A stretch of 64,000 bases of DNA from Octopus vulgaris (Eukaryota), in assembly GCA_951406725.2 (NCBI GenBank), contig OX597830.1, forward strand, positions 54,808,001-54,872,000, written 5' to 3'. Below the pieces are notes generated by a model. The model was not told the origin of the DNA and ran no database searches. It saw only the letters and a program-made list of their open reading frames with translations. The first letter of the stretch is position 1; every line of letters starts with the position of its first letter. This document shows positions 16,739 through 47,054 of the stretch, in pieces. Both the position numbers and the translations under genes were made by a program.

Positions 16739-17197
16739 CAGTATATAAAAATTCGATTAGAGGTTATGTTAACCTCTTGAAGGGATGGCGTCATGTAAGG
16801 AAATACTGGTTCAATACCTAATATTTTGGGAGGATTAATTTCCTTAGAATAATAGGTATGTATATAAAAGCCATGTAGTTTATATTCATGTAAAGGAAGC
16901 AAAAGGAAATGGAGATAATGAATTTAATAAATGCTTATCATCAATAACAAATCAATCATTAATGATTGATTTGTTGTTGATAAGAAACATTTATTAACTT
17001 TGCTATCTCTGTTTTCTTTTTCTTTCTTTATATGTGTATATAATTGTATGTATGTATGTGTGTATGTATGTATGTATGTATGTATGTATGTATGTATGTG
17101 AGTGTGTGTGTATATATATATAAGTGTGTGTAAAATAAAAATTGGGATTAAAAATGTGTGTTTGTATATAATATATACATATGTATACATATATTTG

Positions 17198-20610: not shown

Positions 20611-23577
20611 TACTCTTTTACTCTTTTACTTGTTTCAGCCATCCGGCTGAGGCCATGCTGGGGCACCGCCCTTGTTGCTACCCTCTCTAAGTCCAGTTTG
20701 CCGTGGCTGGCCACTGATCTAAGAGAGAGTTTGTAGCTGCTGCCCTTAGGTTACCTTCGTACCTTGCAGTGGGTTCATCTGGGATCCCGGAAAGCAGCTT
20801 GTCTAGATGTTTTTTGAAAATGTCCACATCCGCATCATGTAGATCTCTTAGTTTTCTTGGCAGTTTGTTGAACAGCTGAGGGCCCCTGAACCCCAGGCTA
20901 TTACAGTATCTGCTCCTTACCCTGGATGTGGAAGACGGGACCTTTGGCACCACACAGTGACGACCTGTACGGGGATTGGAACAGCTCTCAATTCCAAAAT
21001 TTGGTGCTAGTCCCTCCAGGATTTTCCATATGTATATCACTGCATATCTCTCTCGTCTTCGTTCCAAGGAGTACAAATTGAGTTCCCTAAGCCTCTCCCA
21101 ATAGTTCTTTTCTTTCATGGTGGAAATCCTCTTGGTGAAATGTCTTTGGATTGTCTCAAGCTCTGTGGTTAGTTTGACACTATGCGGTGACCACAGTTGG
21201 GAGCAGTAGTCTAGGCGGCTTAGGACAAATGTCCTCCATAGTGTCAACATGGTCTCGCAGTCTCTTGTCCGGAATGTCCTCAGGATCCAGCCAGTGAGTC
21301 GTCTGCACATTGTCGCCACCTTCGCGATGTGTGAAGAAAAAGATGCATCGTCACTCATGTCTATCCCCAGGTCCCGTATTGATTTCGATACTGGGATTTC
21401 GATCCCTCCTGGACCAGTATAGTTGTGTTGTAATGTATATGTGTTTACAGCTTGATATTGTAAGGCTTGAAATTTACCAGCATTAAATTGCATGTTGTTG
21501 TCTTCAGCCCATTTGTATATGGCATCCAGATCTTGTTGTAAAAGGTCAGCATCAGCTGGGTTTTTGATTGCCTGTGCTACCTTTGTGTCATCAGCATAGC
21601 TAGTGAGGGATGTTGTTTGTGCTACCAAGGGCATGTCAGAGAGCGCCACCAAAAACAGCAAGGGTCCCAAGACTGTGCCCTGTGGCACCCCGCTTGCTAT
21701 TGGTGTCTTTCCCGAGAGGGCTCCATTGGCTGCAACCATCTGGCTTCTGTCCTTCAGGAAGTCATGTATCCACTCACCTACTTTTCCTGTTATGCCGAGT
21801 CTGAGTAATTTGTGACATATCACTCCGTGGTCGACTTTGTCAAAGGCCTTCGCAAAGTCGAGATAAACCACATCCACCTGTGAGCGATCCAGTAGTTGTT
21901 TCAGTACCCAGTCGTAGTGTTGTAACAGCTGCGTAAGGCAGCTTCTTCCTGGGCGAAAGCCATGCTGTGTGTCAGTGAGACGGTTAGTTTCTTCGAGGAA
22001 CGTGATCAGTTTTTTTCTGATGATTCGTTCCATGACCTTACTTATGTGTGACGTCAGGGAGACTGGCCTGTAGTTTTTTGCCTCTGCTCTACTCCCTCCT
22101 TTGTGGATAGGGCATATGGTGCCTTCTTTTAGCGCCCTGGGCAGTTTACCGTTAGCCAAGGAACCACTGAAGAGCATCTTCAGTGGTCCCGCTAGGGCAT
22201 GCCTGCATGTTTTTAGGAGGACTGCTGGGAATCCATCTGGTCCAGCAGCTGAGTTTATTCTCATTTCTTCTATGGCAGATATTACATCCCTCTCTGTTAT
22301 GTCTATGTGGTCGATGGTTGTTGTTTGGTTTTGGAGTGTTGTGGCATCAAAGAAAACTTCTGGGTTTGTGATTTGCATGTGCCCCAGAGGGGATGTGAAC
22401 ACACTTTTATACTGTTCCTTTAGTATTTCACTTATCCCTTGGGGGTCCTCAGTTAGAGAGCCCTTTTTATCAAAGAGTGGGCCAATCTTGCAGTGTACCG
22501 AGGTGGTTTCTTTCGCAAATTTAAAGAAAGCTTTAGGGTTTGTTTTAATATTCTCTATGGCCCTGGCTTCTCTCTCTGCCCTCTCCTTCTCATAGGAAAG
22601 TTTGAGTGCAGTTTCCGTTTCAAAAAGTTTCAGGTGGAGTCCCTTATTGTTTCTCTGCCGTGCATTCAGTTGCTTCGAGAGCTTAGCTCTTCGCCTCATA
22701 AGTATTTTCCTGTCTCTGGGAATAACGTTCCTATGCCCGCTGGCTTTTTTCTCCGGGACAAACTTATGGCATATGTTCTGTATTGTTGTCATGAAATGTT
22801 GGAAATGTGTGTTGGTCTCTTGTGTGGTGATGAAGTCACTCCAGTCATGTTTTCGGATCTCTTCGTTGATCTTCTTCCAGTTTGCCTTATGGAAGTTTAG
22901 ACTGGATAGGCCTGTGGTATTTTCTAATGGCTGCGTCTCAACTAACTCTCTCATACCATATATCATTACCTCTACTAAGTTGTGATCTGAGAGAATTGTA
23001 GGTGTTACCATTATGTTGTGGATGAGCATCGGGTTGCTTGTGAAACAGAGGTCCAAGACATTCTCACCTCTTGTTGGCCGAAGCACTGCTTGTTCCATGA
23101 AAAACTTGCGTGTGAGAGCCAACAAGGACTCTGTCTGTCTCTGTTCAAGTGATGTCATTCCAGGGAGGAGATGGCCATCTGGCCATTTGACTTTCGGAAG
23201 GTTAAAATCTCCCAGCAGTAGAATGGTGTTACCCTGGTCCAGTTTGTCCAGGACTTCTTCTATTCTTCTGAGGCTATCTTCAAACACTCCTTCATGACTA
23301 GGGGTGTCTGGTGGCCGATATGTGACACATATTACTATTTTCGGTTGTTTCATGTGTACTATCAGTGTGTCACAGACTGAGTTTGAGTGTGTCAACAGTA
23401 CTATGGGTGTGACATCTTCACGGACGTACAGGGCAACCCCACCATGAGTTCTTTCCTTCCTGTCTGACCGAAAAACAGTATACTTTGGTACGTGTATTTC
23501 TGCATCTGCTATACTGCTTGACAGGTGCGTTTCAGTCAGCGCTATGCATATTGCATGGTTGCTTGTGCTTAAGTCCC

Positions 23578-23578
<1 letters not shown>
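20611..23578 (-). mobile_element. CR1/L2-group LINE, 5'-truncated, recently inserted into a (TA)n tract
   Basis: Uninterrupted ORF2, a ~76-nt 3' UTR with hairpin TCAGCC-GGAT-GGCTGA, and a terminal (GAGTAAAA)n repeat; (TA)n on both flanks. Confidence 0.93.
20687..23578 (-). CDS. LINE ORF2: apurinic-like endonuclease + reverse transcriptase (N-terminally truncated, 963 codons plus stop)
   Basis: The frame stays open upstream of the listed 902-aa ORF (…IALTETHL…[19 protein letters not shown]…). APE motifs YRPP, LGDFN, LDLCF, SDHNLV; RT motifs [47 protein letters not shown]; CR1-like C-terminus SLERRRER. No native ATG. Confidence 0.92.
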
Positions 23579-23652
<74 letters not shown>

Positions 23653-23711
23653 ATATATGTATTTATGTATGTATGTATATATATGTATTTATATATGTAT
23701 GTATATATATA

Positions 23712-24031: not shown

Positions 24032-24230
24032 AATTGGTCTTCTTCACTTCTTACAACCATTTCAATTAATACTCGATAATTTAATAACAAATTTGTACAT
24101 TAGTTTTGCATTTATTTTTTTTCTGATGAAAATATGCTCATATCACATAAATACAAATTTAATGTAGAAATTCGTAACTAAATTATTGAGTATTAATTGA
24201 AACGGTTGTAAGAAGTGAAGATGACCAATT
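24032..24230. repeat. Imperfect inverted repeat (~80-bp arms)
   Basis: AATTGGTCTTCTTCACTTCTTACAACC… / …GGTTGTAAGAAGTGAAGATGACCAATT. Confidence 0.8.
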
Positions 24231-35650: not shown

Positions 35651-36018
35651 GTTGAGCGAAGCAGTCTTCGTCCCAGAGCTTGCAGTGGGACAAGTCTGAA
35701 ACGTGGTCCTTTGCTGTTCATAAGACCCGCAGAAGAGAAACCAGGTCAACCCCTGCCACTGAGAGCATCGACGGATGGATGAATGCGCATCCAGGCTCAG
35801 CAGTTGCGTAGGAAGTCGGGGACAAGAAACAGGAAGAAAAAGTGAGAGAAAGTTGGGGCGAAAGAGTACAACAGGGGTCGGCACCACCCCCTGCCGGAGC
35901 CTCGTGGAGCTTTAGGTGTTTTTGCTCAATAAACACACACAACGCCCGGTCAGGGAATCGAAACCGCGATCTTCCGACCGTGAGTCCGCTGCCCTAACCA
36001 TTGGTCCATTGTGCCTCC
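35651..36018 (-). mobile_element. SINE family C (tRNA-derived) within (GTT)n-rich tract
   Basis: Head GGAGGCACAATGGACCAATGGTTAGGGCAGCGG…GGTTTCGATTCCC; matches 40745-41111 and 54410-54770. Confidence 0.82.
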
Positions 36019-36634
36019 ATTGTTGTTGCTGTTCTTATTGTTGTAAGTTTTGATGTTGTCATTGTTGCTTTTATTGTTGTTGCTGTTGTTGTTGTTGTTA
36101 TAAGTCATTATTGTTGTTGTTATTGTTGCTGTTATTGTTGTCATTATAGTTTCTGTCGCTGCTGTTGTTGTTGTTGTTGTTATTGTTGTAATTGCTGTTG
36201 TGGTTATTGTTATTGCTGTCATTATAGTTGTTGTTATTGTTGTTGTTGTTGTTGTCGCTATTGTTGTTGTTGCTGTTGTTATTGTTGCCATGGTGTAATC
36301 ATTGTTGTTGCTGATGTTTATAAAACCACAGTTCTATGGAGAGACACAGCTGTAGAATGAAGGATCATCCATCTATAAAATAACAATTAATCTGGTAATA
36401 TGCAAATTATCTGAATCAATATGCAAATTAGCTTAAGTTTGTAGAAACCATTCCGGTCGTGTTAACACATGTGTGGAAAAATTAGATATAAAAAACACAA
36501 AATACAAATCAATATTTATTTCACATTAGATAAGTATATTCATATACACACACTGACACACACATAGAAACACACACACACACATATATATGAATATATA
36601 TGCATCTGTATATGTGTATATATGTGTGCATATA

Positions 36635-36758
<124 letters not shown>

Positions 36759-37733
36759 GATAAACTCTGCTTGTGAAGACCCATTGAGGCAAGTGAGGAT
36801 CAGAATCGAAATCGATCAATGGAAATCGATCAATGGAAATTTGGAAAACGGACGCTAAATGATGATGATGATGATGATGATGATAGTTTTATATCTATAT
36901 TTAGTTTTGTGTTTATATTTATGTTTATATTTGATAAACAAAGTTTGTTGCTCGATTTACATTTTTGCAGCCTGCCCCTCCCCCCCCCCCATCCTTCTAA
37001 CACATGTATGGAAATTATGCTAAACTAATGTTGCTGTTCAGTTTATAATTAAATGGAAATATAAAACTTCCCGTGTTTATTCCTACATATCTTAATGTTA
37101 TTTTAAGAAATACAAAAAATACAAAAAAAAACAAAAAAAAAATAATACCAAAAAATACAAAAAGGAAAAATAGAAAGAAATTATGTATATTTAATAGCAA
37201 ATGAAGAATAATTCTACAATTTCTATATTTTCCTCTCACTGAATACTTATTTCCAATATTAATTTTAGGAAGCAACATTTTTTGTGTGGTCAACTAAATT
37301 TCAGTTATTTGAGATTTTAAGTAGTCTCCCTTGGCTGTTGGTGATAGATTTTATTCTTTTAGTACCAACCTGCTTGGTCCCATGATACAAACTTTCCATT
37401 TTAATGTGATCTAAATTAAAACTTCCTATTAAATTTTTTACTAAATTACATTCCAAATGCCAGCATAATGACGATAATGTCATTTTACTGAATTCTTTAT
37501 CGTTTTTCAGAATTAATCAAAAATCAGTATATTTAAAAGAAATATAGTAAAATGAGGGATAAAGCGATCCTAATTAAAATCTCTCATCAAAATTTCATAT
37601 TAATTTATGTTTCAAACACCAGCTTAATAATGACAAAAGTTATTTTACTAAATTCTTTATTATATTCAAAATGAATTGTAACGAAGGTAGTGTATCTCAG
37701 CAGAAACATGGTAACAAATCCTTATTCATATAA

Positions 37734-37764
<31 letters not shown>

Positions 37765-37963
37765 TGAGTAATTGAATGAGTTATCTTATTAAGGATAATT
37801 CGAAAGATAACCGATACCTGGGTAGCAAATTCACATCAGAATGAAGACAGTTGAAGCTACATCCCTAGGGCATAGACTACGTGTCTTTGTGCGGAAATTT
37901 GTATGTTTATTTTAAAATTATAAGTATATGAAAGAATGGAGTTGAACGACTAGTTAACAAATA

Positions 37964-38060
37964 TCCTTTATTCTCGACATATGTTTCAAAGGCTGCATAT
38001 TTCTAATTCCGAAGGAATAAGGAGTACATTATGCAGATTTCTCATCAGGAAAATCAAGGA
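37964..38060 (-). ncRNA. Type I hammerhead ribozyme (intact core)
   Basis: Minus strand: TCCTTGATTTTC-CTGATGA-stem II (GAA..CTGCATA/TATGCAG..TTT)-GAAA-C-ATAT-GTC-GAGAATAAAGGA. Stem I pairs 11 of 12 positions; stem III is the palindrome ACATATGT. Confidence 0.75.
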
Positions 38061-38190
38061 ACTTATGTCGACATCAAAATGCACAAAAAACTTTTAGCTG
38101 ACCGCTCTCAAGGGGCCCATGATTATCGCCATGGGCTCCTTGAGAGCGGTCAGCTAAAAGTTTATTGTGCATTTTGACGTCGACATAAGT

Positions 38191-38287
38191 TCCTTGATTT
38201 TCCTGATGTGAAATCTGCATAATGTACTCCTTATTCCTTCAGAATTAGAAATATGCAGCCTTCGAAACATATGTCGAGAATAAAGGA
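38191..38287 (+). ncRNA. Type I hammerhead ribozyme copy with core change CTGATGA>CTGATGT
   Basis: Mirror copy; GAAA 38264-38267, GTC 38273-38275; A9 replaced by U. Confidence 0.6.
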
Positions 38288-38317
38288 TATTTGTTAACTA
38301 GTCGTTCAACTCTATTC

Positions 38318-38371
<54 letters not shown>

Positions 38372-38963
38372 TCAAAGTGTGACTTAGAAACAATTACTGA
38401 AAAAAGGACAATGAAGTATGGAATGCCTTTTGTCAGCCATAAAGTCCAGAATCATCATAGTTTCAACACAATCAAAGTCCTAAAAATTTAATCCTCTGAT
38501 ACTACCCCACTGATTGTGCTAGCAATTATAAATATCACTGACATGATGATCGTTACAAAGCAAATGACTTTCAAGATTGAGGGTCAACAATATAAAAATG
38601 AGATAATATATACTACAGACAAATGAATGTAACAGAGGTCAATATAAAATCAATTGTAATCTTTCGACTGGGTACAGGAAGGCTCTCACACTCATATACA
38701 TATGCATACACCCTCACATACACACACACACACAAACACGCACACACTCACACACACACACATACACTGAAACACACATTAAGATCATTGTCAATGTTTC
38801 ATGTCTGCTTTTCCCTGTTGGCAATGTTGACATATTTTCAATGCTGAATCTTTTCACAAACCTCTTTAGTCCCCTCTGTTGCATACAAAGACATGGTGTA
38901 GCTATTCTTAAAATCACGGTACACATATTGATACTACATACATATATACACACATAAAAAATG

Positions 38964-39826
38964 GTTCTTGAGCAAAACACTTCATTTTACGTTGCTCCAG
39001 TCCACTCAGCTGGCAAAAATGAGTAATCCTGCGATGGACTGGCATCACGTCCAGCTGGGGAACACATACGCCATAGAAAACAGGAAATCGGATCCAGGAG
39101 CCTGGCTAGGCTTTAAAAGGGCGTATTTATTTTATTTATTATGTATTCACACACAACAAATGTCCAAACACAAGCTTGGAAGTATGTATAATGCTATTGC
39201 TGGATAGTACAGGGGAAATCTGAAGGTGAATGAGCTGTATACTGTACTCTACTATGTTCTTTACAGAATGTACCATGACTATGTATATATGTGTGTCTAT
39301 AAATAAGGGTAGAAATTGATATTAATCAATTAAAACCAGTGACCAAGCATATTTTAAAAAAATTCGAAGATTAAAAATTTTTTGCATACAAAATTTAGAG
39401 GACTGACCTCTAAAAGTGGACAGCCTATATGCTAAACATATGCTTGGTCACTGGTTTTAATTGATTAATATCAATTTCTACCCTTATTTATAGACACACA
39501 TATAAACATAGTCATGGTACATTCTGTAAAGAACATAGTAGAGTACAGTATACAGCTCATTCACCTTCAGATTTCCCCTGTACTATCCAGCAATAGTATT
39601 ATACATACTTCCAAGCTTGTGTTTGGACATTTGTTGTGTGTGAATACATAATAAATAAAATAAATATGCCCTTTTAAAGCCTAGCCAGGCTCCTGGATCT
39701 GATTTCCTGTTTTCTATGGCGTATGTGTTCCCCAGCTGGACGTGATGCCAGTCCATCGCAGGATTACTCATTTTTGCCAGCTGAGTGGACTGGAGCAACA
39801 TAAAATGAAGTGTTTTGCTCAAGAAC
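38964..39826. repeat. Inverted duplication, 389-bp arms with 85-bp spacer
   Basis: 38964-39352 is the reverse complement of 39438-39826 with about five substitutions and no indels. Confidence 0.95.
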
Positions 39827-39910
39827 ACAAAGCATCGTCTGGTCCAGGAATTGAAACCACAATCTTATGACCATGATGCTGACACCCTAACCACTAAGCC
39901 ACGCACCTCC
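39660..39910 (-). mobile_element. SINE family D (tRNA head, CTTGAGCAAAACACTT core)
   Basis: Head GGAGGTGCGTGGCTTAGTGGTTAGGG; relatives at ~3350-3625, ~42509-43085 and ~52158-52400. Confidence 0.7.
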
Positions 39911-40679
39911 ACGTGTGAATAGACAACTAAAAAAATTTCAACAAGAATTAGTCAACAAGAAGGAGTACAGTTGGACATTTATTTTTCAATCACTACAATT
40001 GTTTCTACACACTGTAGTTCTCCATATATGCAGGTTTTTGACGATGCACCTGTTTTCCTGCATTATGAGATCTAGTTGTGTTTTGACGATATGTAAATAT
40101 TGTCTTTTTTAATTACACACACACACACACACACGTACACACTTATATATACATGCATAAATGCATATACATACACATACATGTGTGAGCATGTTTAGTT
40201 AATAAGACATAATTTCTTATTCCTCTGGTCTATAATCCACTCAGTTGAGGAGTCTTGTCTTGTGGATACTTGGTGACCTCACTGGCACTGGTGCCATGTT
40301 AAAATTACCCAGTGCACAAGATTAAGTGGTTGGTGTTAGGAAGGGTATCTAGCTGTAGAAACCATGTCAAAGCAGTCAAAGAACCTGGCAGAGTCCTCTT
40401 ATTTCTTAGAGAGGACAAACAAGGACAGACAAATGGATTAAGTCGATTACATCGACCCCAGTGCATAACTGGTACTTAATTTATCGACCCCCGAAAGGAT
40501 GAAAGGCAAAGTTGACCTCGGTGGAATTTGAACTCAGAATGTAACACCAGATGATATACCGCTAAGCATTTCGCCCGGCGTACCAACAGTTCTGCCAGCT
40601 CACCGCCTTTCCTCTGGCTCATCTGTTCTTATCAAACCATCCAACCCATGCGAGCATAGACATAAAGGACATTAAATGA

Positions 40680-43739: not shown

Positions 43740-43855
43740 CACTTATTTCTTATTTTTATTTTCCTAAAATTTCCGTTGCATCTTGCAACCTTTTCAATAG
43801 TCAAGACAACAAAAATTTTAGGAAAATAAAAATAAGAAATAAGTGCTTTGATTGT
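43740..43855. repeat. Inverted repeat (33-bp perfect core)
   Basis: CACTTATTTCTTATTTTTATTTTCCTAAAATTT / AAATTTTAGGAAAATAAAAATAAGAAATAAGTG. Confidence 0.8.
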
Positions 43856-46593: not shown

Positions 46594-46599
46594 TCAGAA

Positions 46600-46945
46600 T
46601 ATGGCGTCTTTTAGCAGCTTATCATATAAACCATTAATAACTTCATATAGGTTATTAGTCTTATCCGAAAATACAAACTTATTTTTAGAACTTCTAAAGT
46701 TTTTAATATCAAATATCACTTTAGTTTGAAAGGAGATATGGTATTTACGAAATCTAATATTGGTAACTAAATTCAGGAGGTCAGACTCAAGGGGGACTAA
46801 ATCTATAACAATAGGAGGATATTTACATGTCTTTAAACCATAAAGTTCTCTATATGAGGGAGATAATCTGGAATCAAGAAATAAAGTTTTCCATCTCATC
46901 TGTTTCACAAGATCTTCAACTTCCTCAAGTATGATTCTGAGATCT
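46600..46945 (-). pseudogene. Penelope-like element ORF fragment (region N-terminal to RT)
   Basis: EEVEDLVKQMRWKTLF…YGLKT…PP…ESDLLNLVTNIRFR…FQTK…SDKTNNLY…YDKLL resembles the PLE 'KRMRWKA…ADKT.NLY' region. Confidence 0.7.
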
Positions 46946-47054
46946 GAAACTATTAATAGCGCTTTAATACATGTATTGTGACCTTTAAATAAGCAATATA
47001 TATCTCTCACCAGTTGGAATACATTTTTTTGTCAAATTTTCTATCATGAATCAG

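Follow-up and report, generated by a model that had tools for sequence, protein, structure and literature searches.

The palindrome in the 64,000-nucleotide stretch of Octopus vulgaris DNA analysed here (the window) belongs to an insertion that, with good probability, consists of two truncated tail ends of a Penelope-like element (PLE) placed head to head in a TA repeat. Judged by sequence comparison, the inserted material is the pseudo-LTR (pLTR), that is the 3′ end, of an abundant PLE family. The locus is a real, ordinary PLE stub, and inverted 5′-truncated copies, a tail at one end and (TA)n targets have already been published for PLEs (PMC8557442). The lineage, together with a long covarying stem II in its hammerhead, is mildly new, a modest novelty.

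Geometry of the insertion

An inverted-repeat search identifies arms at 37919-38121 and 38130-38332, each of 203 nt and with nine mismatches between them, seven of which fall in a 197-nt core; 8 nt separate the arms. The first-pass annotation had described a palindrome with 197-bp arms, about seven mismatches and an 8-nt spacer, and this holds. Its left boundary, a (TA)n run at 37925, does not, since BLAST against a near-full family copy (L031) extends the element leftward to approximately 37762. The insertion is thus larger than had been stated, at 565 bp (Table 1). The same comparison divides the region into a minus piece (37756-38121) and a plus piece (38122-38332), in which the outermost few bases are TA, and the 8-nt "spacer" proves to be ordinary family sequence that forms part of the plus copy.

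Table 1. Features of the insertion and its flanks (window coordinates)
Feature	Position	Strand	Basis
Left (TA)n target; boundary merges with AT-rich element end	37738..37762		Family copies end in TA runs
Whole insertion: two 5′-truncated 3′ ends of a Hydra-related PLE, head to head (probable)	37762..38326		BLAST to L031
Tail, ~160 nt, left copy only (long 3′ end)	37762..37924	-	Family comparison including L097 and L098
Left arm, pLTR segment, sense on minus strand	37925..38121	-	Inverted-repeat search and family matches
Type I hammerhead motif, full core, G10.1-U11.1, predicted cut 37976|37975	37964..38060	-	Motif search, folding
Stem III, 8-nt palindrome, predicted intermolecular helix of -7.0 kcal/mol	37977..37984	-	Alignment, folding
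Stem II domain, 54 nt: 3 bp, 2x2 internal loop, 7 bp, apical hairpin	37988..38041	-	Alignment, folding
8-nt spacer, the 5′-most bases of the plus copy	38122..38129	+	BLAST to L031
Right arm, pLTR segment, short 3′ end without tail	38130..38326	+	BLAST to L031, end comparison
Second hammerhead motif, A9U at 38209, predicted cut 38275|38276	38191..38287	+	Subfamily alignments, folding
Right flank, (TA)n then (GA)n	38322..38371		Sequence

The arms are unequal in content. The left carries the 160-nt tail and the right the 8-nt spacer, and each of these is absent from the other, so neither arm is a simple copy of its partner. The two 3′ ends lie 212 nt (left) and 46 nt (right) past the hammerhead cut site; the tail, where copies are in tandem, leads directly into the beginning of the following unit. 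In the family sequence, CRE-like and TATA-like boxes lie upstream of the point where each arm starts, and both arms are without the putative promoter. A 20-mer spanning the junction 38121|38122 occurs once in the 2.8 Gb genome (227 contigs).

Near-perfect inverted repeats are a known artefact of long-read sequencing and of amplification, and a second inverted repeat with 392-nt arms lies only 640 bp away. An assembly or library artefact of the fold-back chimera type, or a later inverted duplication confined to this locus, is nevertheless scarcely credible given the seven arm mismatches, the unequal ends at two family-specific stop points and the dozens of other loci with the same layout.

The window holds other fold-back sequences. 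The larger inverted repeat just mentioned (38964-39826) has six mismatches between its arms, a 79-nt spacer and SINE-like sequence inside; its right arm reaches approximately 85 nt deeper into the SINE-like repeat. A search for hammerheads in the usual order gave none within this inverted repeat. At 16881-17040, 24032-24230 and 43740-43845 there are short fold-back repeats that are more diverged (80-84% identity), and several of the family loci fetched from elsewhere in the genome also contain unrelated fold-backs.

A Hydra-related family of Penelope-like elements

With one arm as query, scoring 40 of 2,272 candidates yields 49 matches at 96-100% identity. A 23-mer spanning the cut site has 1,322 exact copies in the genome and its reversed control none, so the motif is not a product of chance. 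Exact cut-site tags for two further subfamily groups give 352 and 1,823 copies (reversed controls 0), which brings the family to at least 3,497 exact tag copies. L031 retains an inverted pLTR, a broken ORF, 3′ UTR, hammerhead, tail and (TA)n; its reverse transcriptase (RT) as query yields 125 matches at 72-100%. The first-pass annotation had claimed a Penelope-type pLTR, to be checked by linkage to an RT and GIY-YIG ORF. The long-stem hammerhead lies downstream of an ORF of that type in 32 of 40 loci chosen by RT alone, and the claim stands.

The layout marks of endonuclease-positive PLEs are present, namely tandem or partial tandem pLTRs, inverted 5′-truncated copies and a tail at one end (L077, L031, L097 and L098), with L077 a head-to-tail tandem with a period of 3,624 bp. 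The family inserts at (TA)n, is young and retains many ORFs that are intact. Contigs from four runs contain the family and its variants; these contigs give no ends, strand or level. A sister subfamily (approximately 79% RT identity; L077 and others), with many intact ORFs of 899 aa, head-to-tail tandems and the 1,823 tag copies, looks recently active.

The 40 fetched loci include 17 ORFs longer than 780 aa (785-934 aa). DKT and YRDD occur in 17/17, CxxC..E in 17/17, CxH in 14/17 and RW(K/R/L) in 12/17, there as RWL; a C-terminal GIY-YIG-like motif without CCHH is seen in 15/17. Pfam and PDB searches with the family protein gave no significant match, and RT and GIY-YIG are assigned by motifs and by-eye likeness to published Hydra proteins. 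The nearest database proteins share 29-43% identity and carry Hydra motifs. A C-terminal GIY-YIG without CCHH, RW, DKT, and CxxC plus CxH near the end are marks of the Hydra clade (Craig et al. 2021, PMC8557442), and with the members described there, such as Hydra-1_Obim and Penelope-13_HM, the family has in common these motifs, the placing of CxxC and CxH around a conserved E/N, (TA)n targets and a type I hammerhead with a palindromic stem III. Penelope-13_HM also has an inverted 5′-truncated copy, and its hammerhead is present on both strands (PMC8557442).

Several features set the family apart. The CxCx5C linker ahead of the endonuclease is present in 104 of 120 listed database homologues and in none of the 17 family ORFs, which is why we describe the family, on its motifs, as Hydra-related rather than file it as a member of the Hydra clade. 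The protein is about 900 aa with Asn/Ser-rich inserts, compared with about 706 aa for the listed homologues. Relative to the Hydra clade as documented in PMC8557442 the unit is longer (approximately 3.5-3.6 kb against less than 3 kb), as are the tail (approximately 150-160 nt against 30-40) and the stem II domain (53-56 nt, where the Hydra motifs listed there have about 24 nt or less). The hammerhead of Hydra-1_Obim is a different one with a short stem, and the supplement of that paper contains none of three tags of the present family. Naiad and Chlamys elements, which have an N-terminal GIY-YIG and of which Naiad had first been suggested by RT motifs, are ruled out by the C-terminal position of the endonuclease.

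Other retroelements are found in the window and beside family copies. A decayed N-terminal piece of another Hydra-like PLE, with RWK and DKT, lies beside (TA)n at 46594-47031 on the minus strand, and no hammerhead was found near it. An open frame of 991 codons with a YADD motif (20687-23662, minus strand) is presumably a LINE protein with AP-endonuclease and RT. At one locus (L043:4216-5400, minus strand) two family copies enclose a different PLE, which has a Cys-rich linker and a weak GIY-YIG Pfam match; we take it to be Neptune-like. The flanks of L053, L055, L074 and L085 contain further type I hammerhead motifs that are unrelated and whose stem II domains measure 14-60 nt; two of these motifs have the 8-nt stem III palindrome of this family.

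Head-to-head pairs and the origin of the two arms

Is the arrangement in the window peculiar to this locus? Among the first 100 listed tag matches there are, counted by eye, 22 opposite-strand pairs within 7 kb, and in all of them the 5′ ends face each other; one pair of the opposite orientation is present in the match list of the 352-copy tag. Approximately four in ten tag matches of the sampled list belong to inverted pairs. Past the cut site, family copies stop either after about 41-71 nt or after about 200-214 nt, and 17 of the 20 pairs fetched (two of the 22 were left out) combine one long with one short end (p=0.0013 against 50%). The three exceptions are one long with long, one short with short that has a detached tail piece and one rearranged pair. 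Inspection of the first 20 apparent singles reveals an inverted partner for nine, all nine again long with short, and five of these partners are tail-only, with little or no overlap with the other arm. Overall, 26 of 29 pairs are long with short (p = 8e-6 against 50%), and the junction positions vary from pair to pair. The inverted pLTR copies proposed in the first-pass annotation fit the palindrome, but the left tail, the clade and the status of this layout as the family's routine insertion product had been missed.

We consider it likely that a single event produced the insertion, in which reverse transcription was primed by both nicked strands, at the two start sites of the element. The element's endonuclease would nick both strands of (TA)n, with priming about 210 nt past the hammerhead cut site from one strand and about 50 nt past it from the other. 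The two cDNAs would end near the 5′ end of a pLTR-started RNA and then be joined. They may have run off the RNA 5′ end, which is the weak step because the TATA-like box is not conserved. For the parent element the prediction is that two hammerheads join through the 8-nt palindrome and, as a dimer, cleave transcripts that are tandem or paired.

A precedent is the purified PLE protein of Poseidon_Ac (PAc; Frangieh et al. 2024, PMC11167929), which in vitro cuts both strands of the target, extends each of them, and begins at two adjacent internal sites, the limits of the tail. PAc and the octopus family are alike in their AT-rich targets and in a hammerhead upstream of the start sites, which in PAc is not needed for insertion in vitro. 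PAc belongs to another clade and its start sites are inside the ORF, whereas here they lie upstream of the start codon and approximately 150 nt apart (PMC11167929).

The main alternative invokes the same element with a mirror arm made by fold-back, one cDNA forming a hairpin and copying itself. Many pairs stop at a nearly identical 5′ position, often within 30 nt, which fold-back would also give, and arms have rare variants in common. In the window both carry a rare G>A (6 of 96 other alignments have it), suggestive of a single source RNA or locus, and at L102 and L106 both arms of each locus carry the same core change, A6G. The latter also suggests that core-mutant RNA was still copied into the genome. 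A simple fold-back cannot, however, give the arms seen in the window, as they are non-nested and each holds sequence absent from the other. The tail-only partners overlap the opposite arm little or not at all, and the 26 of 29 long-with-short joins point to two priming events rather than to fold-back. The non-nested arms largely refute the alternative and we regard it as unlikely.

The motif TGACGTCA (CRE-like) and TATAAA lie 15-35 nt upstream of where the window arms start, and 11 of 34 arms (from seven loci) start in that 45-nt zone compared with two in the 160 nt upstream, so that 5′ ends cluster a short way downstream of the pair of boxes. Other subfamilies have not retained TATAAA, and the putative CRE/TATA promoter is poorly conserved among them; that the boxes are the promoter of a pLTR-started RNA is a weak inference from sequence. 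Hairpins that are 85% paired can be drawn ahead of both 3′ ends in an alignment that left out 6 of 33 tail segments, with both-side changes at only 1 of 20 pairs, and the hairpin sequences differ.

Hammerhead motifs and the long stem II

Each arm comprises stem I, CUGAUGA, a 54-nt stem II domain, GAAAC, AUAU, GUC and stem I′, and motif searches and folding agree with the type I hammerhead layout first noted for both. Stem I pairs at 11 of 12 positions, as had been reported, one of the pairs being G-U, and the minus-strand cut is again predicted at the position assigned earlier. The A9>U change described for the plus copy is likewise present; the position is A in 92 of 93 subfamily alignments and, on this comparison, the plus-copy hammerhead is likely to be impaired. 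The minus-strand core had been called intact. All core nucleotides are indeed there, but C>T at 37988, private to this copy (C in 97 of 98 subfamily alignments), converts the G10.1-C11.1 pair to G-U. A G-U at 10.1/11.1 is the normal state of the sister subfamily with 352 exact tag copies, so the minus copy need not be inactive when it is an isolated RNA.

An Rfam search of 36000-40500 up to E=10 returned no hammerhead, only sub-threshold miRNA-like matches to hairpins and simple repeats. The hammerhead models may miss the motif on account of its long stem II. The minimum-energy monomer fold mispairs the core (-25.3 against -23.1 kcal/mol). The whole insertion, as a hairpin, is predicted at -365 and -362 kcal/mol for the two strands, and a read-through hairpin of about -365 kcal/mol compares with -222 kcal/mol when the hammerhead is forced. 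The earlier suggestion that a read-through duplex would trap the ribozyme is thereby supported by a predicted advantage of approximately 140 kcal/mol. Whichever strand is read, the antisense arm is transcribed first. The hammerheads at this locus are, on these predictions, probably inert passengers.

Long duplexes of the kind predicted here, 197 bp and 96% paired from either strand, are substrates of ADAR and Dicer. The palindrome might then itself be a mobile or selected unit, whether MITE-like, a retrozyme or a host dsRNA switch that masks the ribozyme or feeds ADAR or RNAi. We judge this very unlikely. Its junction occurs nowhere else in the genome, the position of the junction varies between pairs, both arms have private changes (A9U and C11.1U included), there is no tandem unit and no host exon was recognised among the 72 long open frames of the window inspected by eye. 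Metazoan non-LTR retrozymes are similar in being non-coding and in having a type I hammerhead derived from PLE pLTRs; they form head-to-tail tandem units, unlike the one-off head-to-head stub of an autonomous family considered here (10.64898/2026.07.22.740005; PMC7229834). A non-LTR retrozyme is ruled out by the single head-to-head pair with its unique junction.

The structure was assessed with an alignment of 35 distinct motifs, two of an initial 35 (a near-duplicate and a mis-parsed sequence) having been dropped and the two window arms added. The motifs were chosen by core pattern, so that core invariance is by construction. The whole structure is 81% paired compared with 36-48% in slid controls. 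Pairing reaches 88.9% in outer stem II, where 7 of 12 pairs show both-side changes; in stem I, 4 of 11 pairs do. There are 75 cells with both-side changes where shuffles give 33.9, although these are sequence counts that represent few independent events; counted as pairs, such changes show no excess over shuffles (13 against 13.1). The apical hairpin is weaker, 73.7% paired with both-side changes at 1 of 10 pairs, and RNAalifold recovers outer stem II only, without predicting the apical hairpin. In 60 tag-picked copies the 5′ core is at the right distance in 41, and many of the other 19 are 5′-truncated. The stem II of about 54 nt, noted from the window as unusually long, is accordingly a conserved family trait; the stem covariation proposed as a check on it is seen in outer stem II and stem I. 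We predict that the long stem II acts as a conserved accessory arm of a dimer-cleaving hammerhead.

At the centre of the stem III palindrome 25 sequences have UA, five CG and four UG, and the CG form is represented by the 1,823 tag copies. The change from UA to CG is probably a single event; it preserves self-complementarity, as the dimer model expects (PMC4209133). The minimal hammerheads of metazoan PLEs (Cervera and de la Pena 2014, PMC4209133) resemble those of this family in being type I motifs in pLTRs with a short palindromic helix III, a conserved G10.1-C11.1 and a dimer model, and dual hammerheads 100-700 bp apart on opposite strands are reported there also. They differ in having a helix II of 7-8 bp and an unpaired base after A9, where the present family has a multi-part arm of 54 nt and a stem I of up to 12 bp. 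A stem II of about 50 nt is known from PLE-X1_sMoe and PLE-X1_sTam, flagged as deviating from the canonical structure (PMC8557442); these are endonuclease-less, Chlamys-related elements of spike moss and their sequence is unrelated to the family.

Literature searches returned no paper with this family or with a count of long and short ends, and none on a type I hammerhead with a long stem II in retrotransposons; those on Penelope-like twin priming and inverted copies gave off-topic papers only. Long-stem variants may appear in Lunse et al., who, according to the review PMC6765202, deal with PLE hammerhead dimers.

What does the family offer? It has a natural variant of the hammerhead, missed by Rfam models and with a long stem II that covaries. 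Two RT start sites 150 nt apart make the long-with-short rule cleanly countable, and the family renders testable how Penelope-like elements produce inverted copies. If transcribed, it could add many dsRNA hairpins. A further idea, which we offer tentatively and think rather doubtful, is that the lineage exchanged a zinc-finger linker for low-complexity inserts and evolved a functional 54-nt stem II module. Were this so, the module might serve, for example, as a docking arm for the element protein or as a tertiary contact that gates dimer cleavage, and the thousands of head-to-head insertions would document, across a whole genome, how a dimeric PLE enzyme primes from two strands, and would also supply perfect dsRNA hairpins in large numbers.
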